Positions 41,090 to 50,570 of a stretch of DNA of 64,000 nucleotides are shown here, in pieces. The DNA comes from an uncultured Bacteroidales bacterium (lineage in GTDB: Bacteria > Bacteroidota > Bacteroidia > Bacteroidales > VadinHA17), in the NCBI GenBank assembly GCA_963732575.1, contig CAVTAA010000002.1, forward strand, positions 192,509-256,508. The letters are read 5' to 3'. The notes beneath the pieces were generated by a model that worked only from the letters and a program-made list of their open reading frames with translations, did not search any database and had not been told where the DNA came from. Position 1 is the stretch's first letter. Every line of letters starts with the position of its first letter. The translations under genes and the position numbers were made by a program.

Positions 41090-43309
41090 TCAGTTTATTG
41101 AAGCCATCGTTCTCAGTATGGACGCTGCCCAGGAATATATATTATGTCTTACAATCAACATCCTCATGTGCTTCATTCTCTGGTTTTGTTCTTCCGGAGG
41201 CATTTCCAATGCATCTTTTATCGCATCAGCTGCTTCTTCAATATCGTAGGGATTAATGATAATTGCGCTCTGAAGTTCCTGGGATGCCCCGGTGAACCGG
41301 CTCAGGATAAGAACACCGTCATTACGGTCACGGGAAGCTACAAATTCTTTCGCTACCAGGTTCATGCCGTCATGAAGCGATGTCACCATACAAAAGTTTG
41401 CTGATGAATACAACGGAGATATTTCCTGGTGGGTATGATGACGGTTGAGAAGGAGTATTGCCTTCCATTTTTTTGATTTGAATCTCAGATTAATTCTTGA
41501 AGCCTCTGCTTCAACTGCATCCATAGTGTCAGAATAGTCCTTAAGCTTCGTTCTGCTTGGTGCACCTATCTGAACGAAGGTAAATTTTTCGATATACGAA
41601 GGATTTTTCTCAAGGAATCTCTCAACCGCAAGAAATTTCTCGACAATACCTTTTGTGTAATCAATTCTGTCAACACCAATTCCGATATAATGAGACATGA
41701 TACCATGTTCTGCCAGAAAAGCATCAGCATTTACTTTAAAAGAGGCATGGTCATAGTCTTTAAGAGTAAATGCAATGCTGATGGGAAAAGGTTTAACGAT
41801 ACTTGTTCTTTTACCCATTTTAATGGAGTAATTTTCCCATAATACCCGGGACTTAAGTGCGCCATTTACTGTCTCGAGAAAATGGTTGCAGTGGTATTGG
41901 GTGTGAAAGCCGATAAGGTCAGCTCCCAACATACCCAATAATATTTCTTTCTGCCATGGACATATTCCAAATGATTCCGGATTTGGCCATGGGATATGCC
42001 AGAATATAGCTATCCTGGAATTAGGTTTTTCACTCTTAATTAATTCAGGCAATAAGGCAAAATGATAGTCCTGAATAAGAATGAACGGATTATCCTCATC
42101 TTTTACTTCCTCAAGGACAGCTTTGGCAAAATCTTCATTGACTTTTTTATAAAAGAGCCAGTCATTCTTACGGAAAGTCGGCCTGGTATGAGCAATGTGA
42201 CAGAGTGGCCACAGGCCTTCATTCGAAAAACCATAATAGTAGTGATCTTCCTCCTCTTTGGTGAGCCATACTCTTTTCAGGGTATATTTAGGTTCCTCAG
42301 GTGGCACTTCAACTTTGTTCTCGGCATTTACTGTTTCTCTGTCCGCATCTCCCATCCCCGATGCAATCCAGATTCCACCGCATGCTTCTAACACAGGTTC
42401 TATTGCAGTTATCATTCCGCTTGCAGGGACAATGCATTTAATCCTCTTTCCGTCATGAATATGCATATAAGGCTCGCGATTGGAAACCACTACTATTTTC
42501 TTATTCTGCAGAAGATTTCCCATTTCTGCCTTAAGTCGTTCCGGTGTCCAGATCGCCTCAGCTGTTGCTCTTAATCGTGCTTCTTCCTCCGCTGAAGCTT
42601 TAGCTATACGCATTTCAACTGCGATAGATTCAATCTCTTTGTGCAGAGGACCCAGAAACCTGAGATTTGATGGCGGATTATTATGCTCGACGTTTCCGGC
42701 ACGCATTGCTTTCATCCAGTTCAGAATCTTATTCATCGGGTTAAAAATCCCCCATCTTATAAGGGCGAACGTGACAAAGCCAATAAATAATGTCTGTAGG
42801 AACCAGCGCATGAAATTGCGAAACCAGATCTTACTGATGTTCTGGCCTATATACCCGGCATCAGAATAGAGTACCAGGGCACCATTTGCAAAATCAGACT
42901 TACTTACCGGTCTTATATATTGAAAAACATCTATCCCGGCGTGCTCAAAGAATGTACCGAAAGAAGAGTCCTTCTCAACGGCCTTTGGAACTAAATCTAC
43001 AGAGAAATTTATCAGGTCAAACGGTGAATTATTAAATAGCAGGCTATCCTCATCATAATAAAGCGCCAGCCCTAGTAAACCATTTCTGGCTTTAATGCTA
43101 TCTGCCAATCGCTCAAGACCTTTGTAATCCGGGTTGTCAATAATGGTTACAAGATAACCGGAAATTTCTTCTGCTCTGGCTGAAGTCAGAACTTCAAGTT
43201 CATTGTTCAGCTTACCTCTCTCAGCAGAAATCTGGAACACTGTGAACCCCAGAGCTACGAGGCTTACCGCAAGAATGATAGAGAGAATAAATGCAAGAGT
43301 ATTTCTCAT
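41090..43309 (-). CDS. otsA: Trehalose-6-phosphate synthase (GT20, OtsA-like) fused to an N-terminal TM / periplasmic sensor / TM / HAMP-like region
   Basis: Intact 739 aa. GT20 core VVVSNREPY..., GFSNEGLWPLCH, IQDYHFALLP and LIGFHTQYH. The N-terminal 260 aa has two TM helices and FNPMNKILNWMKAMRAGNV...LGPLHKEIESIAVEM. Confidence 0.85.
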   Translation of the reverse strand: MRNTLAFILSIILAVSLVALGFTVFQISAERGKLNNELEVLTSARAEEISGYLVTIIDNPDYKGLERLADSIKARNGLLGLALYYDEDSLLFNNSPFDLINFSVDLVPKAVEKDSSFGTFFEHAGIDVFQYIRPVSKSDFANGALVLYSDAGYIGQNISKIWFRNFMRWFLQTLFIGFVTFALIRWGIFNPMNKILNWMKAMRAGNVEHNNPPSNLRFLGPLHKEIESIAVEMRIAKASAEEEARLRATAEAIWTPERLKAEMGNLLQNKKIVVVSNREPYMHIHDGKRIKCIVPASGMITAIEPVLEACGGIWIASGMGDADRETVNAENKVEVPPEEPKYTLKRVWLTKEEEDHYYYGFSNEGLWPLCHIAHTRPTFRKNDWLFYKKVNEDFAKAVLEEVKDEDNPFILIQDYHFALLPELIKSEKPNSRIAIFWHIPWPNPESFGICPWQKEILLGMLGADLIGFHTQYHCNHFLETVNGALKSRVLWENYSIKMGKRTSIVKPFPISIAFTLKDYDHASFKVNADAFLAEHGIMSHYIGIGVDRIDYTKGIVEKFLAVERFLEKNPSYIEKFTFVQIGAPSRTKLKDYSDTMDAVEAEASRINLRFKSKKWKAILLLNRHHTHQEISPLYSSANFCMVTSLHDGMNLVAKEFVASRDRNDGVLILSRFTGASQELQSAIIINPYDIEEAADAIKDALEMPPEEQNQRMKHMRMLIVRHNIYSWAASILRTMASIN

Positions 43310-43441
43310 TCGGTTAATTGCTGTAATAATTTTTCCACTTCAAAAATATCCTCGAATTTATATCTGGCATAGGTTGCTCCAGTTCCGATTCCCGGGAAGA
43401 TTCAGTTATACTAACAACTGCCCGGTGTAACTGAATAATTC

Positions 43442-43449
43442 CAAAGTTA
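43442..43449 (-). promoter_or_regulatory. Candidate -7 box for the otsA-like gene
   Basis: The coding strand reads TAACTTTG, a perfect TAnnTTTG, about 130 nt upstream of the ATG at 43309. Confidence 0.3.
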
Positions 43450-43605: not shown

Positions 43606-45399
43606 ATGGATAATCTTAATTATGGTGTTATTGGGAACGGCAGGAGTGCCGCTCTTGTTTCGGATAAAGGCAGTATTGACTGGTGTTGCCTTCCTGACTT
43701 TGATTCCCCTTCAATGTTTGCTAAATTGCTTGATAGTGATAAGGGTGGGAGTTTTGAAATTATTGTTGACGATTCGTACAGCATATCTCAAAAGTACCTC
43801 TACCGGACAAACATACTTTGCACAGAATTCAAATCGACGGAAGGAACCTTTGAAGTCATCGATTTTATGCCAAGGTATAAAACGTCTGACCAGGACTACT
43901 TTGCCCCTGCCGAGTTATACCGATATATAAAATATATATCCGGAAAACCCTCATTCAGAGTAAAATATTGTCCCGCCTTTAATTATGCGCGAGAAGCAGT
44001 CGCCAGTATATCAGATGAAGAATGTATTGTAACATATTCAATTGAAAAACCTACAGATTGTATATATCTCTATACCAGCCTGAATTTTAATGATGTTCTC
44101 GAATCGAATAATATCGAACTTACACAACACCAGTTTATTTTACTGTCATACAATCAGAAAATTATTAAAATTGATATCAAAAGGGTCTACCTGGAGTTTC
44201 AGCGCACAAAAGTCTATTGGCTTAACTGGACAAACCGGTCCAGAAGATTTAAAAAATATCAGGAAGAAATAATAAGAAGTCAGCTGGTTTTAAAAATAAT
44301 GTCATTTCAATCTACCGGGGCTTTGCTTGCAGCACTGACAACCAGTATCCCTGAAACTATTGGTGAAGCCCGTAACTGGGATTATCGGTTCTGCTGGTTA
44401 CGTGATGCTTCGATGTCATTGGATACATTGCTTAATATGGGGCATTTTTATTCTGCACAGCGCTTCATGGGTTATTTGAAAGGTATTTTGAAGTCAAAAA
44501 ATGACACGTTCCAGATTATGTATGGCATCAGGGGTGAGCGTGAACTGACAGAACAGGAGCTACCTCATCTTGCAGGTTATGAAAATTCAAAACCTGTAAG
44601 AATTGGCAATGCAGCATTTTCACAAAGGCAAAATGATGTTTTTGGATATCTGCTGCATGTTATTTACCAGTATTATAAATTTTTTCCCGGCACATTAGAC
44701 GAAGTTGAAGATATATGGGAGATTGTACGACTGATTTGCCGGACGATTTCCACTCACTGGGAAAAGCCGGACAAGGGTATCTGGGAAATAAGGAATGAGG
44801 AGAAGCATTTTGTTATCTCAAAAGTAATGAGCTGGGTAGCTATGGACAGGGCAGTGAAAATTGCCGGATTACTTAATAAGAATAACTATGCTGAATCGTG
44901 GAGAGGAATTGCTGATGATATTAAAGAGGATGTATTAAAGAACGGATGGAAAGAGGACCTGCAGACCTTTACAAGAGCGTATAATGATTCAGATCTTGAT
45001 GCCTCTTTGCTCCTGATGGCTGAATATGGTTTTATTGATCCCTTTGATCCTAAGTATAAAAAAACAGTCATTGCCGTAAAGAAGGAGCTCTTTAATAACG
45101 GACTTGTTTATCGCTATATCAGTGCCGATGATTTTGGCAAGCCAAGCTCCTCATTTACAATATGTACTTTCTGGTTGATCCAGGCACTTTTCAGAATAGG
45201 AGAAAAAGATGAGGCAAAAAAAATATTTGAGGACTTATTGACTTATGGAAATCACCTCGGGCTTTTCAGTGAAGATATTGACTTCTCCACGAAGCGATTA
45301 CTTGGTAATTTCCCTCAGGCATATTCACACCTGGCTTTAATTAATTCAGCAACTTTATTTTCAGAAGAGGACATTTTGCCGAAATTCATCATGCCCTGA
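43606..45399 (+). CDS. Glycoside hydrolase family 15 (glucoamylase/trehalase-like)
   Basis: Intact 597 aa. N-terminus MDNLNYGVIGNGRSAALVSDKGSIDWCCLPDFDSPSMFAKLL, then NWDYRFCWLRDAS is typical GH15. Divergent from the otsA-like gene. Confidence 0.85.
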   Translation: MDNLNYGVIGNGRSAALVSDKGSIDWCCLPDFDSPSMFAKLLDSDKGGSFEIIVDDSYSISQKYLYRTNILCTEFKSTEGTFEVIDFMPRYKTSDQDYFAPAELYRYIKYISGKPSFRVKYCPAFNYAREAVASISDEECIVTYSIEKPTDCIYLYTSLNFNDVLESNNIELTQHQFILLSYNQKIIKIDIKRVYLEFQRTKVYWLNWTNRSRRFKKYQEEIIRSQLVLKIMSFQSTGALLAALTTSIPETIGEARNWDYRFCWLRDASMSLDTLLNMGHFYSAQRFMGYLKGILKSKNDTFQIMYGIRGERELTEQELPHLAGYENSKPVRIGNAAFSQRQNDVFGYLLHVIYQYYKFFPGTLDEVEDIWEIVRLICRTISTHWEKPDKGIWEIRNEEKHFVISKVMSWVAMDRAVKIAGLLNKNNYAESWRGIADDIKEDVLKNGWKEDLQTFTRAYNDSDLDASLLLMAEYGFIDPFDPKYKKTVIAVKKELFNNGLVYRYISADDFGKPSSSFTICTFWLIQALFRIGEKDEAKKIFEDLLTYGNHLGLFSEDIDFSTKRLLGNFPQAYSHLALINSATLFSEEDILPKFIMP

Positions 45400-45472: not shown

Positions 45473-47890
45473 TCAGTTAACGGTATATTTCTCTAAGATT
45501 CTCTCAAACTCAGGATCCTGTTTTAACGGGGCCCATCTTGGATCCAGTTCCAGAATTTTGGAAGAAAGCGGGCCTGGTATTGATAATAAATAATCTATTT
45601 GCTTTATTGCCTCGTGATATTTTCCCAGCAAAACATAGGTATAAGCCAGGCTTTCAACTAAGTAAACACCTTTCCATGCCTCTTCCTTCACAGGTAACAT
45701 TCTGACAGCCTTTTCACCTGAAGTGATTGCTTTTTCTTCTAAGCCCAGGCCTGCGTAAGCAATGCCCAATGAACTGTATAATCTTTGATCCTGCGGAAAA
45801 TCAATGACCTTCTTTTCAATTAGAATCCGTGTTGAGTCATAATAAGCGTGCTCTAACTCAGGCTTGTTCATTAAACCGTAAATAAAAGCGTAGTAGAGAT
45901 ATTTTGGACGGTAATACCACTGGGCTTCAAAAATATCGAATCCGGATCGAGTAAGATTTTTCAGAGCTTCCTCATAATCGCCATCATAAATATTAATTAA
46001 AACCAGTGTTTCTAATGTAAGAGAATCCTTAAAAAAGAATGCATTTTTCCGGGTTTCATCATCCAGGAGTTCTTTTGCCCGTATCGTATTACCATCAATT
46101 TTCATATACAGCTCGGCCAGATCTTTATAAGGATATGTCCAGTCCGGATTAATAGAAAGGGTTGTATTATAGTATTGGAGTGCTTCCGGATAATTCCTGA
46201 TCAGATCAAATGTCTCCCCGGTATTAAATGCAATACGTGCAGATTTGGGAGCAAGCTTGCTGGCTTTCACAAGAAAGGATTTTGACATTTCCCAGTTCCC
46301 GTCACGACGGTAGACACACCCTGCGTAGTAAAAGGCTTCAGAATTCCCCGGTTGTTCTTTTATGACCATTTCTAACTGCTCAAGAGCCCTGGAGTAATCC
46401 AGATGACCATTGTAGTAATAAACCCCCAGCGCAAGATGTGCGTCAGGTAACTGGGGATCTATGTCGAAAGCTCTGTCAATTGCCTCTCTGCACCTCTGCA
46501 ATACCTCTTCATTACGATTATGATAGAACCAGTATTGCGATAAATAACTCATCGCAAGCCTGGTATAGGCCAAAGCAAATCCTGGATCAAGCTCAATTAC
46601 TTTTTCGTACATGTGTACTGCCTGTTCATAGTCTTGTGAATCATAACTCTTCCAGTAATAGAAGTTGCCCTGGAGATATAGATTGTATGCTTCAAGATTT
46701 TCGGTTGGTCTCTTCTCAATATTTTCAATTTCATCCGGCGTGAGTACCGCTTTCATTTCCGCAGCGATTGACTTTGCTATTTCACTCTGAAGAGAAAATA
46801 TCTGTTCAATGGTCATCTCTCTCGTATAATCATTTGACCATAAGTGCTTATCGGCTTTTGTATCAATCAGCTGAACCCATATTTTTATATTATTCCCTTC
46901 GCGTCCTACACTGCCTTCAACTAAATAATTTACATTAAGCTCGTTACCTATTGCTGTTATAGACTTCTTCGTGTCTCTGTACTGATCGGTAGATGTTCTG
47001 GATCGTACCGTAAAACTTTGAATTTTTTGCAGATTATTTAAAATCTCTTCAGTAAAACCGTCACAAAAATATAACTGGGTAGAATTGTTGCTCAGATTAC
47101 GGAAAGGCAGAACGGCAATTGATTTTTCAACTTGCTCTGATGATTTAAACAGTTTTGGAATAAATAAAAAGCCAAGGAGCGTTAATATTATGGCTATTAT
47201 AGATATTGCAAGGATCCTTGTCTTACGATTTTTTTTTCGGACAGGTTCCGACTTAATTACTTCCTTTTCTACTTCTTCTTTCTGTGTACTATATTGGGTT
47301 ATCGAAGTAATGATTTCTCTTATTGCAAGGGCAACTTTATTAATCTGATTCCGGTAATTGGTTTTATTCAGATTTTTCTCCTCGTTATCCTTTGTCGTCA
47401 GCGGTCTGTCAACGCCTGGTTCTTTGTATATGAATTCAACTCCTCTGAGAACTCCATCCAGGACAGATTCACATAGTTTTATGTCGGCAGTGTCTAAATC
47501 ATGAATACGTACCGGCAGTACCCTGCTTGCAACATTACCGTTAGGCAGTTTAACTTTCAAACCAAACTGCTCATTTGAAGCCTGTTTCACAAATGCTTTG
47601 AATTCGTGTTCCCAGGCAAATGATTTCGGATCGCAATAAGTGCGTGAGATGATTGGGATAAAGACCAGACACTTTAGTTTCTCTTTCAGGGAAGCATCAA
47701 CATCATGTGTCTCCAGCAGTCCATCATGTGGATTGATATCGTAATAAACGCTAATCTCTTCCTTGAATGTTGACTCCAGTTCTGTCTTTAAAGCGTCAAC
47801 GAATTCGCTGACCCATCTGTCGCCTTTGTTGTCTTTCTGGCGGTAAGAGATGAAGATGTCGTATTCGTATCCGGGGGCAAGACTTGCCAT
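45473..47890 (-). CDS. TIR-domain / single-TM / TolB-N-like / TPR protein, paralog C
   Basis: Intact 805 aa. MASLAPGYEYDIFISYRQKDNKGDRW and SFAWEHEF are present. TM is ILAISIIAIILTLLGFLFIP. Then KSIAVLPFRNLSNNSTQLYFCDGFTEEILNNL and TPR-like repeats. Confidence 0.85.
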   Translation of the reverse strand: MASLAPGYEYDIFISYRQKDNKGDRWVSEFVDALKTELESTFKEEISVYYDINPHDGLLETHDVDASLKEKLKCLVFIPIISRTYCDPKSFAWEHEFKAFVKQASNEQFGLKVKLPNGNVASRVLPVRIHDLDTADIKLCESVLDGVLRGVEFIYKEPGVDRPLTTKDNEEKNLNKTNYRNQINKVALAIREIITSITQYSTQKEEVEKEVIKSEPVRKKNRKTRILAISIIAIILTLLGFLFIPKLFKSSEQVEKSIAVLPFRNLSNNSTQLYFCDGFTEEILNNLQKIQSFTVRSRTSTDQYRDTKKSITAIGNELNVNYLVEGSVGREGNNIKIWVQLIDTKADKHLWSNDYTREMTIEQIFSLQSEIAKSIAAEMKAVLTPDEIENIEKRPTENLEAYNLYLQGNFYYWKSYDSQDYEQAVHMYEKVIELDPGFALAYTRLAMSYLSQYWFYHNRNEEVLQRCREAIDRAFDIDPQLPDAHLALGVYYYNGHLDYSRALEQLEMVIKEQPGNSEAFYYAGCVYRRDGNWEMSKSFLVKASKLAPKSARIAFNTGETFDLIRNYPEALQYYNTTLSINPDWTYPYKDLAELYMKIDGNTIRAKELLDDETRKNAFFFKDSLTLETLVLINIYDGDYEEALKNLTRSGFDIFEAQWYYRPKYLYYAFIYGLMNKPELEHAYYDSTRILIEKKVIDFPQDQRLYSSLGIAYAGLGLEEKAITSGEKAVRMLPVKEEAWKGVYLVESLAYTYVLLGKYHEAIKQIDYLLSIPGPLSSKILELDPRWAPLKQDPEFERILEKYTVN

Positions 47891-47899
47891 GTCGATTAA

Positions 47900-50302
47900 T
47901 TACTGGTATTTTGTCTTATATTCTGTTGTGAGAATCTTTTGAAAGCGAGGTAAATCGCGCAGTTTATCGTAAGCCGGATCAATTTTAAGCAGCGGAACAG
48001 ACAACTCACCCGGGATTGTTAGGAGATATTCAATCTTATCCATTGCCAGATCATATTCTCCTGCAAGTATATAAATATTAGCAAGATCATTCTCCTTTAC
48101 AAATCCTTGCCAAACATCCATTTTCATTGGCTTAAGTTTTACGGCTTTTTGTGCGCTTTCGATAGCTTTTTTATTCTCTCCTTTATAAGCATAAGCATAT
48201 CCCAGGGCTGCATAAAACCTGTCATCATCAGGGAATTTCCTGATTTTCAAATTTAACTCAGTGATAGCAGAATCCGCATATCTCCTGCTCATCTGAATAT
48301 TTGAATTAAGAAAGTAAGCCTTTGCGAGATTTAAAGTCTTCGGAAAGTAGTTAAATTGAGTTTCAGTTTTTTCTGTTACTTGTAATAACTTATCAAATTT
48401 CCTGCTGTAATAATAATAGCTGTCCCCGGGATAGTAGTAAAACCACAATTCTGAATTACTTAACTCTGATACTTTCAGAGCTTCTTCTACATTACCCTTC
48501 CATAAAAGGATAGTCTGAAATTTGTCATATTTGATTTTTGTATCGGGATCAAGCTGTATCCCTAAAACCTGCGGTCTGTTAAAAAGATCCATAGCCTCAG
48601 AATATCTCCTTAACAAACGGTAGGAATAACCTGCCTCAATGATATATTCTCCATTAAACGGATCTAAAAGAAAGTACTTTTGTACTTCTTTCAGGTGTTC
48701 CTCCCAGAGTCCATTCCGTCGCAATACAAAACTTTTAAGATAAATACAATCTGAGAAATTTGGTGTTTGAGATAACAATTCATTCAATAATTCCAAGGCT
48801 CTGTCATTATCCCGATCAAGATTATAGAGCAACCTTGCTTGCGTAAATTTCACTCCAGGCAGATCGGGATTTATCTTCATTACAGTTTCAATATCTTCTC
48901 TTGCCAAATGATCAAAATCTTGCCAACTTTCAAAGTTTTTATACTCGTCTTTTGTAAAAAATATGTTGCTGTAATAAGAGGCTCTAAATAAATATGCCAA
49001 AACAAATTCCGGATCATGCTCAATGGCTTTATCCAGCATTCTGATCGCTGAATCCTGCTTTATTTCTGATGAATATTGTATTGCTCTGAGATAATAATCG
49101 TAAGCTATCGGATTTTTTGTTGGAATTTGCCGGATCTGGCTTTCTTCCTGACTTGTAAGAATAGCTTTTAATTCCCTGGCAACATTTTGAGCTACCTCAG
49201 TCTGTATTGAGAAAATATCCGCAAGGTTTTTATCATATGTTTCTGACCATAAATGCGTATCAGTTCTTGCGTCAATTAGTTGTGCGGTAATTCGTACATT
49301 GCTCCCGATCTTTTGTACACTGCCCTCGAGGATTGAAGAGACACCTAGCTCTTTGGAGATCTCTCTTAAAGAGAGTTCTGTATTCTTATATTTCTTCGTT
49401 GAAGTGCTGGAAATTACTTTTAGTTCACCAACCTTGAACAGGTGGTTTAAAATTGCCTCCACAACACCATCACTGAAATATTCTTGTTCAGGATCATTGC
49501 TGAGATTAACAAATGGTAACACAGCAACGGATTTTTCAGTTGGTTCTGAAGACTTAAACAACTTAGGAATAGTAAAATACCCAATGAATATCAGTACCAG
49601 CAAAATGACTGATGTAATAATAATCTTTGTTTTCAGGCTCTTAGGCTTTTTGTGATTTGCCTTAGTAACATTTTTTGTACCCTCTGCATTCTGTTGATTA
49701 TGCTTTTTTATTGCAGTAATTATCTCTTTAACAGCATTTGCAACTTTATTGATCTGATCGCGATAATAAGTCTTATTCAGGTTGTCCTGAGGGTGATCTT
49801 CATTGGCTCTCAAAGGACGATTTACACCAGATGACTTATAAATAAACTCTATGCATCGAAGTACTTCCTCAAGTTCATTCTCAAGAAGTGTATCATCGTC
49901 CGGGTCGAGATCATGAATCTTGATTGGCAATATCCTGCTGGCAACATTCCCACTTGCAAGTTTCAGGTCTCTTCCAAACCTGTCTTCCTTTGCCAGCTTA
50001 TTAAATGCGCAAAACTCGTGTTGCCAGGCAAAGCTTTTTGAATTGCAATAAGTTCTTGATATTACAGGAATGAAGATCAGGCATTTCAATTTATCCTCCA
50101 GAGAGCGATTTACTAAATGGGTTTCAAGTAAGCCATCTTGTGGATTGATATCAAAATAAACTGATATTTTGTCCTTAATGTTAGCCTCTAGTTCTTTGTT
50201 GAGATTATTTACAAACTCAGTAACCCAGCCATCATATTTATTATCATTCTGACGGTAACTAATGAAGATGTCGTATTCAAAGCCTGGGATGATGCTTGAC
50301 AT
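47900..50302 (-). CDS. TIR-domain / single-TM / TolB-N-like / TPR protein, paralog D
   Basis: Intact, 800 aa from MSSIIPGFEYDIFISYRQNDNKYDGW (the track ORF extends to 50356). SFAWQHEF is present. TM is IIITSVILLVLIFIGYFTIP. Then KSVAVLPFVNLSNDPEQEYFSDGVVEAILNHL. 9-nt spacer to paralog C. Confidence 0.85.
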   Translation of the reverse strand: MSSIIPGFEYDIFISYRQNDNKYDGWVTEFVNNLNKELEANIKDKISVYFDINPQDGLLETHLVNRSLEDKLKCLIFIPVISRTYCNSKSFAWQHEFCAFNKLAKEDRFGRDLKLASGNVASRILPIKIHDLDPDDDTLLENELEEVLRCIEFIYKSSGVNRPLRANEDHPQDNLNKTYYRDQINKVANAVKEIITAIKKHNQQNAEGTKNVTKANHKKPKSLKTKIIITSVILLVLIFIGYFTIPKLFKSSEPTEKSVAVLPFVNLSNDPEQEYFSDGVVEAILNHLFKVGELKVISSTSTKKYKNTELSLREISKELGVSSILEGSVQKIGSNVRITAQLIDARTDTHLWSETYDKNLADIFSIQTEVAQNVARELKAILTSQEESQIRQIPTKNPIAYDYYLRAIQYSSEIKQDSAIRMLDKAIEHDPEFVLAYLFRASYYSNIFFTKDEYKNFESWQDFDHLAREDIETVMKINPDLPGVKFTQARLLYNLDRDNDRALELLNELLSQTPNFSDCIYLKSFVLRRNGLWEEHLKEVQKYFLLDPFNGEYIIEAGYSYRLLRRYSEAMDLFNRPQVLGIQLDPDTKIKYDKFQTILLWKGNVEEALKVSELSNSELWFYYYPGDSYYYYSRKFDKLLQVTEKTETQFNYFPKTLNLAKAYFLNSNIQMSRRYADSAITELNLKIRKFPDDDRFYAALGYAYAYKGENKKAIESAQKAVKLKPMKMDVWQGFVKENDLANIYILAGEYDLAMDKIEYLLTIPGELSVPLLKIDPAYDKLRDLPRFQKILTTEYKTKYQ

Positions 50303-50508
50303 CAGGGTTCTATTTAATTCATTATCAAAAATAAACCTAAGTAAGGCCAAATGCAAATATTAGTTTACATTGGTAGGACAAAATCCTTAATTGATTTCCC
50401 TTTGACAAGGGTTTTAAAGATGTCGTTGATCAAATTAGCACTAGAATGGTGTTAATCACCAAAGACCACTGTTTATTGGAAAACGATTTCGTTGGAATTC
50501 TACCAAAA

Positions 50509-50530: not shown

Positions 50531-50570
50531 TGAAAAAACCACTTATCAGGATTTCTTGTTAAGTAATTGA

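Follow-up and report, generated by a model that had tools for sequence, protein, structure and literature searches.

A protein with a catalytic domain of the TPS (trehalose-6-phosphate synthase) type, carrying a receptor-type transmembrane module at its N-terminus, is encoded in a stretch of 64,000 nt from an uncultured Bacteroidales bacterium (contig CAVTAA010000002.1; the whole of this stretch is called the window below, and all coordinates refer to it unless another locus is named). The gene, referred to here as sensor-otsA, is complete and occupies positions 41090–43309 of the minus strand, where the open reading frame (ORF) listing gives 739 codons with an ATG start and a stop codon at 41090–41092. 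From its N- to its C-terminus, the 739-residue protein is laid out as a first transmembrane helix (TM1), a periplasmic domain, a second transmembrane helix (TM2), a HAMP-like unit, a linker helix and a glycosyltransferase domain of family GT20. We think it probable that sensor-OtsA is a one-component transmembrane receptor-enzyme that controls trehalose-6-phosphate synthesis post-translationally; that the enzyme is regulated by an extracytoplasmic signal is what we infer from this architecture. A receptor-type module would here serve a new metabolic output, a design that is apparently undescribed. An earlier reading of the same DNA, made from the sequence only, had already proposed the fusion of an N-terminal transmembrane sensor to a TPS, and this proposal is borne out by hydropathy, by AlphaFold2 (AF2) and Foldseek analyses and by conservation of the architecture across phyla.

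The fused reading frame and its occurrence

The N-terminal module comprises residues 1–266 and was used for finding relatives. A restrictive scan with a degenerate pattern, covering one genome per GTDB species, detected the module in at least 129 species, and 80 related loci were examined. All 80 encode the same fusion, of about 737–744 residues, wherever the contig is long enough, so that the N-terminal architecture surveyed for recurs in every informative case; identity within the module is 43–82%. The closest relatives (80–82% identity) are metagenome-assembled genomes of uncultured Bacteroidales. The loci derive mostly from Bacteroidales, but also from Chitinophagaceae, Sphingobacteriales, Paludibacter, Saprospiraceae, Crocinitomicaceae and Ignavibacteriaceae, and one carrier is a cultured member of the Sphingobacteriales, Solitalea koreensis DSM 21342. 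When 1.84 billion representative proteins were scanned in HMMER with a profile of the module, 1038 matches were obtained at E<=1e-3, 507 of them at E<=1e-10; among these are distant members of full length from Elusimicrobiota and from Acidobacteriota, such as PYV27934.1 (761 aa) in the latter. Soil Acidobacteriota are among the carriers. The architecture is conserved over at least four phyla, namely Bacteroidota, Ignavibacteria, Acidobacteriota and Elusimicrobiota.

This conservation bears on the trivial explanation that the fusion is an annotation artefact, in which translation would start internally to give an ordinary soluble OtsA, the upstream 800 nt being non-coding or a separate gene. 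The sole point in its favour is an in-frame methionine at residue 263, the only one nearby; its column conservation is 0.7, and V or I is found at this position in some relatives. The full frame is kept by 80 of 80 loci and by members from other phyla, and the ratio of nonsynonymous to synonymous substitution rates (dN/dS) against the closest relative, locus L001, is 0.18 in the module as against 0.08 in the GT20 part. In relatives, moreover, the stop codon of the upstream gene otsB and the annotated ATG overlap (as ATGA), an arrangement that the window retains. Since the N-terminal part is conserved, shows a dN/dS of 0.18 and does not keep M263 as a methionine, an internal start yielding a soluble OtsA is unsupported, and we regard the artefact as very improbable.

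Membrane topology and the periplasmic domain

Kyte-Doolittle hydropathy, calculated in 19-residue windows with a threshold of 1.5, exceeds this threshold at just two sites, in windows starting at residues 1–12 and 166–171. These peaks (residues 5–25 and 170–189) coincide with the two transmembrane helices singled out by the sequence-only reading. TM1 (residues 5–25, LAFILSIILAVSLVALGFTVF; positions 43235–43297, minus strand, as are all parts of the gene) has a hydropathy peak of 2.66 and a mean column conservation of 0.79, and is located within an AF2 helix spanning residues 2–58. TM2 forms a unit with a preceding juxtamembrane helix (residues 153–188; 42746–42853), where the hydropathy peak covers residues 166–189 and AF2 places a helix from residue 152 to 185 or 203. 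A near-invariant motif, IW-RNF-RWF-Q, is found at the juxtamembrane/TM2 region, with I161, W162, F166, W169, F170 and Q172 being invariant. As the GT20 substrates (UDP-glucose and glucose-6-phosphate) are cytoplasmic and two transmembrane helices precede the catalytic domain, residues 27–152 are assigned to the periplasm and the protein to an N-in/C-in topology; the short N-terminus before TM1 would then be cytoplasmic.

The AF2 model of the N-terminal part was built on 14 homologous N-terminal sequences and has a mean predicted local distance difference test score (pLDDT) of 77. It contains a helix of residues 2–58 that includes TM1, a helix of residues 62–76, strands at residues 78–84 and 90–93, two short helices within residues 97–113 and three long strands within residues 117–150. 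The periplasmic elements, predicted with pLDDT values of 80–90, follow the order of a PDC fold, in which a long N-terminal helix precedes an antiparallel sheet of five strands with helices on its flanks. Beyond the periplasm the model continues with the TM2 helix (152–185), a helix of residues 189–203, a loop and a long helix of residues 214–253. A full-length AF2 model agrees with this description, and in it TM2 is continuous with the first post-membrane helix; with a predicted template modelling score (pTM) of 0.40 and low confidence at residues 359–378, 439–521 and 723–739, it is not used here for arguments on the coupling of domains.

When the N-terminal model was compared with the PDB using Foldseek, the top match was a full-length model of the sensor kinase WalK (9a5d_A, E=7e-8, 274 aligned columns), followed by the extracellular domain of WalK (4ywz, E=2e-5; also 5is1 and 7dud), KinD (4jgq), Tlp3, Mlp24 and the HK1S-Z/histidine-kinase sensor domains, the sensor-domain matches having a Foldseek probability of 1.0 and E-values of 2e-5 to 1e-3. 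On the strength of the matches to the WalK, KinD and Tlp3 sensors, the periplasmic part (residues 27–152; 42854–43231) is read as a PDC/Cache-like, PAS-like sensor domain. The structural models thus predict both a PDC/Cache-like sensor fold and a module topology matching the sensor half of WalK-type kinases. The stretch of about 150 residues that had been placed between the two transmembrane helices accordingly corresponds, in the AF2 and Foldseek analyses, to a folded domain of about 125 residues.

The HAMP-like unit and the linker helix

Directly after TM2 follows the HAMP-like unit (residues 189–236; 42602–42745), in which AF2 predicts a helix of residues 189–203, a loop and a second helix starting at residue 214 or 217. 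In sequence terms, helix 1 extends from P191 to G205, the connector from residue 205 to 218 (about 13–14 residues) and helix 2 from residue 219 to 236. P191 and G205 are invariant or nearly so, also when other phyla are included; G205 is followed by an asparagine and a hydrophobic residue, resembling a "G-D/N-L" motif, and hydrophobic residues at positions 219, 222, 226, 229 and 233 have the 3-4-3-4 spacing seen from sequence. The P191–G205 spacing equals that of P283 and G297 in what we take to be the sequence and numbering of the Af1503 HAMP domain, for which HAMP identity was confirmed (E=1.2e-13). In hhalign comparisons with a small profile made from ten Pfam-verified HAMP domains, helix 1 and the Gly-Asn pair were aligned in register over 26 columns (P=7.5e-4, hhalign probability 25%), control helices giving P=0.19 and 0.29. 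Sub-threshold Pfam HAMP matches were obtained for 4 of 81 close relatives (best E=0.003) and for 7 of 24 divergent ones (best E=3e-4), and sub-threshold sensor-domain matches for the latter set as well: sCache_3_2 in seven of 24 (best 1.1e-4), SMP_2 in 10 of 24 and CHASE8 in five of 24, together with dCache_1 and sCache_4. Because the HAMP and sCache matches lie below threshold, we speak of a HAMP-like unit and claim no family membership. The segment designated HAMP-like by the sequence-only reading (residues 189–233) thus stands as regards its position, length and key residues, short of a formal assignment to HAMP.

The linker helix (residues 237–266, AEEEARLR...WTPERLK; 42512–42601) connects this unit to the catalytic domain and is the most conserved N-terminal part (0.81–0.83), with a W-T-P-E-R-L motif and, together with the residue just before it, invariant A236, A240, E243, A244, R247, W254, T255, R258 and L259. 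The coiled coil suspected after the HAMP-like segment fits this order, AF2 predicting the long helix of residues 214–253. Besides TM1, conservation within the module is highest in TM2 (0.77), in helix 2 (0.78) and in the linker, as would be expected for a path that transmits a signal. Two findings had been named beforehand as speaking against the proposed architecture, namely an N-terminus neither embedded in the membrane nor HAMP-like and a likelier internal start; the N-terminus is predicted to be both membrane-embedded and HAMP-like, and no likelier start was found.

Receptor or membrane anchor

Several results weigh against a receptor function. The window protein has no Pfam HAMP match even at E<=10 (the gathering score is 25 bits), so that an HMM check of the HAMP assignment yields only the sub-threshold matches in some relatives, and none of the 81 close and 24 divergent family members scanned attains the Pfam HAMP threshold. 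Helix 2 was left unaligned by hhalign against the ten HAMP domains, which make up a small reference profile. Pfam Cache families gave no match either when the window protein, its N-terminal 271 residues and residues 170–271 were scanned at E<=10, and searches of PDB sequences with the module profile returned nothing meaningful. Within the module, conservation is lowest in the periplasmic domain (0.55). Within Bacteroidota, D70, S71, D88, S89, S103, D114, Y148, D150 and Y153 are invariant or at least 90% conserved; most of the residues conserved in Bacteroidota vary across phyla, and no cross-phylum conserved polar pocket was identified, so that there is no obvious conserved ligand and anchoring could be the main role of the module. 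Finally, module-profile searches did not find the module on kinase, cyclase, GGDEF or methyl-accepting chemotaxis protein (MCP) outputs, and a word-indexed search with a profile of divergent members gave nine matches, all of them fragments of the sensor-OtsA family. The module therefore appears to be largely specific to this enzyme family; with no classical outputs attached, its status as a sensor rests on fold and topology, and common ancestry with classical sensors is not demonstrable by sequence.

These observations would suit a module serving mainly as a membrane anchor or dimerisation device with no signalling, which would place trehalose-6-phosphate synthesis at the inner membrane face, for instance to protect the membrane locally or to channel the product to a membrane-associated partner. 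Its transmembrane helices (0.77–0.79) exceed the periplasmic domain in conservation, no ligand pocket stands out as conserved and no Pfam sensor or HAMP family is matched above threshold. However, an anchor needs neither a folded PDC domain of about 125 residues, nor a HAMP-like unit with invariant proline and glycine residues, nor an invariant linker, and the topology of the module is exactly that of the sensor half of WalK-type kinases. Two architectural variants also favour reading the module as a sensor cassette. In P0148 (690 aa; positions 3373–5445 of locus L081), the same TM-PDC-TM-HAMP-like module (E=5e-30) is attached to a GCS2 (glutamate-cysteine ligase family 2/carboxylate-amine ligase) domain, without GT20 and without the GT20-type linker helix, whereas in P0028 (913 aa) two tandem periplasmic PDC domains are followed by TM2, the HAMP-like unit and GT20. 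Such reuse on another enzyme and duplication of the input domain are typical of sensor modules. The gene neighbourhoods of P0148 and of P0013 (locus L082, a frameshift-rich assembly) are uninformative. Taking both sides together, we consider a mere anchor unlikely and a receptor-enzyme the better reading of the module.

The catalytic domain and its genomic context

The catalytic domain (residues 267–739; 41093–42511) matches Pfam PF00982 (Glyco_transf_20) over residues 271–735 with E=5e-118 and 395 bits against a cut-off of 32.5, covering profile positions 2–471 of 473; the GT20 core thus begins close to residue 265, as had been estimated from the sequence. The protein ends with GT20 and has no match to PF02358 (Trehalose_PPase) in Pfam scans, so it is not a fusion of TPS with a phosphatase for trehalose-6-phosphate (TPP); the same scans found no HisKA/DHp or HATPase_c domain. 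Among solved structures, phmmer ranks Candida albicans Tps1 best (5huv, E=1e-74), with matches also to 5hut, Mycobacterium thermoresistibile OtsA and E. coli OtsA. In the alignment with 5huv and 5hut, the motifs SNR, DYH, H-x-P-x-P, GVDRxDYxKG, PSR and DGMNLVxxE are kept; in OtsA structures, these motifs hold the residues for UDP-glucose and glucose-6-phosphate binding and for catalysis. Judged by its motifs, the catalytic half looks like a competent trehalose-6-phosphate synthase.

NCBIfam models place the domain less precisely, as all scores fall below their cut-offs: PRK14501 gives 474 against 634, TIGR02400 (OtsA) 419 against 564.85 and TIGR02398 (GgpS) 292 against 569, and the match to PRK14501 concerns only its TPS half (profile positions 2–462 of 729). 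As the equivalog scores are missed, the family is taken to be a distinct subfamily whose exact specificity is deduced from context. This leaves some space for the idea that GT20 makes another product here, for example a glucosyl-phosphate compatible solute, or acts as a regulatory domain that binds sugar phosphates, of which plant class II TPS proteins are an example. The missed cut-offs of all three models, as well as the absence of otsB from the window and from several relatives, would agree with such a function. It is improbable in our view, since none of the UDP-glucose and glucose-6-phosphate binding motifs known from solved TPS enzymes is missing, the GgpS score lies far below those of the OtsA-type models, and the usual partners of the gene are a Trehalose_PPase and GH15 or GH37 trehalases.

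The neighbourhoods of the related loci are indeed those of a trehalose pathway. In 48 of the 69 informative loci, otsB is located immediately upstream on the same strand, usually overlapping the otsA ATG by 4 nt, and the encoded OtsB, about 250 aa long, matches Pfam Trehalose_PPase (E=1.6e-44). Next to sensor-otsA, 34 loci have a GH15 trehalase-like gene, which in nearly every case is upstream and oppositely oriented; clustering of the neighbours of the 80 loci further revealed a GH37 trehalase in nine loci and an MscS-type channel in nine (L014, L032, L034, L036, L040, L043, L046, L057 and L075), L036 being that of S. koreensis. The commonest gene order is GH15< otsB> sensor-otsA>, followed by MscS> otsB> sensor-otsA> GH37> and then by otsB> GH37> sensor-otsA>. 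The presence of otsB, trehalase and MscS genes supports a role in the trehalose pathway and in osmotic homeostasis. In the window itself, the divergently transcribed GH15 neighbour noticed earlier is a real gene (43606–45399, plus strand), encoding a 597-aa trehalase-like protein with Glyco_hydro_15 (E=1e-61) and TREH_N (E=8.5e-16) domains; it scores 446 bits with the NCBIfam trehalase model TreH1, below the cut-off.

Loss of otsB in the window

The statement that no otsB is visible holds for the window, where tblastn found no other otsB-like sequence within the 64 kb besides a remnant, but does not describe the family, in which otsB is the usual upstream gene. The remnant (43306–43389, minus strand; translation GIGTGATYARYKFEDIFEVEKLLQQLTE followed by the stop) consists of the last 27 otsB codons and a TGA that overlaps the otsA ATG, and is 85% identical to residues 222–248 of L001 OtsB. 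Across the deletion junction (43389–43409, minus strand), about 20 nt stand here in place of about 700 nt in loci L001 and L002; the stretch missing relative to L001 (its positions 9221–9920) covers otsB codons 1 to about 221. In blastn comparisons with L001 and L002, both flanks of this gap are 87–91% identical. The alignments thus indicate that a deletion of about 680 bp removed otsB here and left otsA intact; it is this event, and not a trait of the family, that accounts for the missing gene. Similar losses are seen in L029, where a remnant of about 24 codons is left, and in L008 and L078, where otsB is wholly gone. An assembly artefact is the less likely explanation, as the flanks align cleanly to two relatives and otsB has been lost comparably in these three loci, and the loss seems to be recurrent. 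Without an adjacent otsB, the product in this organism would be trehalose-6-phosphate, unless a phosphatase encoded elsewhere completes the pathway.

A candidate −7 box of the former otsB-otsA operon (TAACTTTG; 43442–43449, minus strand) lies 140 nt upstream of the otsA ATG. Of 50 relatives, 34 have the pattern TAnnTTTG in the 200 nt upstream of otsB, where it clusters at 71–78 nt, as compared with 0.125 occurrences expected per 230 nt. We take TAnnTTTG to be the −7 promoter element of Bacteroidetes, following the published Bacteroides consensus, and its promoter role here is presumptive.

Further features of the window

Compared with L001, the flanks of the gene are rearranged: about 10.7 kb are inserted beyond the GH15 gene, and about 7 kb found downstream of otsA in L001 are missing here. 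Four paralogous genes encoding proteins of about 800 aa, all on the minus strand (28042–30519, 36262–38655, 45473–47890 and 47900–50356), have an N-terminus that is conserved among them (…[FY]DIFISYRQKDNK…), a hydrophobic segment in the middle and TPR repeats at the C-terminus. The N-terminus appears TIR-like by eye and has no Pfam match at E<=1e-3. Two of the four are found in the block of about 10.7 kb absent from L001, between GH15 and the next shared region, and the same block contains a serpin gene (50567–52096, plus strand; Pfam Serpin E=1e-98), whose bacterial product is extended N-terminally by about 140 aa. The gene at 30608–32455 (minus strand) encodes a RyR domain (E=1.5e-16) together with a phosphatase domain of the SpoIIE/PP2C type (E=6.5e-21). 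Convergent with otsA is an ORF of 208 aa (40398–41024, plus strand) without a significant Pfam or NCBIfam match; it is conserved in L001 (19560–20338, 83% nucleotide identity), where it is situated about 7 kb from otsA.

Comparison with known systems

Sensor-OtsA shares with WalK (YycG) and with kinases of the PhoQ/DcuS/CitA type the succession of TM1, a PDC domain, TM2, a two-helix HAMP-type unit and a continuing helix. It differs from WalK-type kinases in that its output is a GT-B glycosyltransferase, with no DHp/HisKA/HATPase domains and no need for a response regulator, and in that its sequence similarity to these sensors stays below HMM thresholds. With the soluble TPS enzymes (E. coli OtsA, 1gz5/1uqu; C. 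albicans Tps1, 5huv; mycobacterial OtsA, 5jij) the GT20 domain aligns end to end, whereas the transmembrane module of about 266 residues is an N-terminal addition, and the gene order in relatives is otsB followed by otsA with a 4-nt overlap. The Bacteroidetes TPS-TPP fusion protein (TPSP, PRK14501) is the best NCBIfam model, occurs in the same phylum and has a similar length (about 730–740 aa). In contrast to TPSP, sensor-OtsA lacks the C-terminal phosphatase, and its extra length is N-terminal and membrane-embedded.

Coupling of HAMP domains to enzymes other than kinases is known from the mycobacterial adenylate cyclase Rv3645 and from HAMP-GGDEF and HAMP-PP2C proteins. The principle is shared, in that a HAMP unit behind a transmembrane helix relays a conformational signal to a dimeric catalytic domain, but the outputs of Rv3645 and its kin make or remove signalling molecules, whereas that of sensor-OtsA is a metabolic enzyme forming a compatible-solute precursor. 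Post-translational control of a GT20 compatible-solute enzyme also has a precedent in Synechocystis GgpS, which is activated by salt. In Thermoproteus tenax, a TPSP-GT-MSC complex and linkage of the msc and tpsp genes are described in a 2013 phylogenetic study (PMC3634074); a mechanosensitive channel gene is thus linked to TPS genes there, as MscS is in nine sensor-otsA loci. Differently from sensor-OtsA, with its fused transmembrane receptor, the T. tenax complex and GgpS are soluble enzymes governed by ionic strength or a partner protein. The 2013 study treats almost all Bacteroidetes TPS as TPS-TPP fusions and leaves a membrane form unmentioned; likewise, the term "transmembrane" does not occur in a 2025 review on trehalose-6-phosphate synthesis (PMC12125463). 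Searches of the open-access literature and preprints yielded no account of a TPS that is transmembrane or linked to HAMP or Cache, and no report of a HAMP-glycosyltransferase.

Proposed mechanism

The receptor-enzyme is probably a homodimer. A cue acting outside the cytoplasm or in the membrane would displace TM2, and the HAMP-like unit together with the linker helix would convert this movement into altered activity of the GT-B enzyme, for example through a different arrangement or closure of the two catalytic domains, so that trehalose-6-phosphate synthesis could be switched without new transcription. The cue would most plausibly relate to stress (osmotic, desiccation or envelope) or be a small periplasmic ligand. 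Of the neighbouring genes, the trehalases and MscS suggest stress by osmolarity or desiccation; in addition, the transmembrane helices and the IW-RNF-RWF-Q motif are strongly conserved in comparison with the periplasmic domain, so that the cue might be sensed in or at the membrane in preference to a specific ligand. As a broader and more tentative proposal, for which we would give slightly less than even chances, the family may represent a new class of one-component receptors with a metabolic GT-B output that switches within seconds, built on a reusable cassette ("receptor-gated metabolism") in four phyla.

Significance

The named source records call the family members plainly "trehalose-6-phosphate synthase", and with this uniform annotation their putative regulatory half has been overlooked, in a family that is widespread in environmental and gut-related Bacteroidota. 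If the proposed function is right, the outputs of HAMP/PDC modules would extend from signalling enzymes to a metabolic glycosyltransferase, and protein engineering would gain a natural example of receptor control over a GT-B enzyme. The cultured carrier S. koreensis DSM 21342 makes the hypothesis directly testable. Bacterial trehalose synthesis is described as controlled mainly at the level of transcription, for instance when otsBA is induced osmotically or in stationary phase, or through allosteric effectors that are soluble. For the organisms that carry sensor-otsA, a receptor-enzyme would provide a faster, transcription-independent path from an external or envelope cue to the accumulation of a compatible solute.

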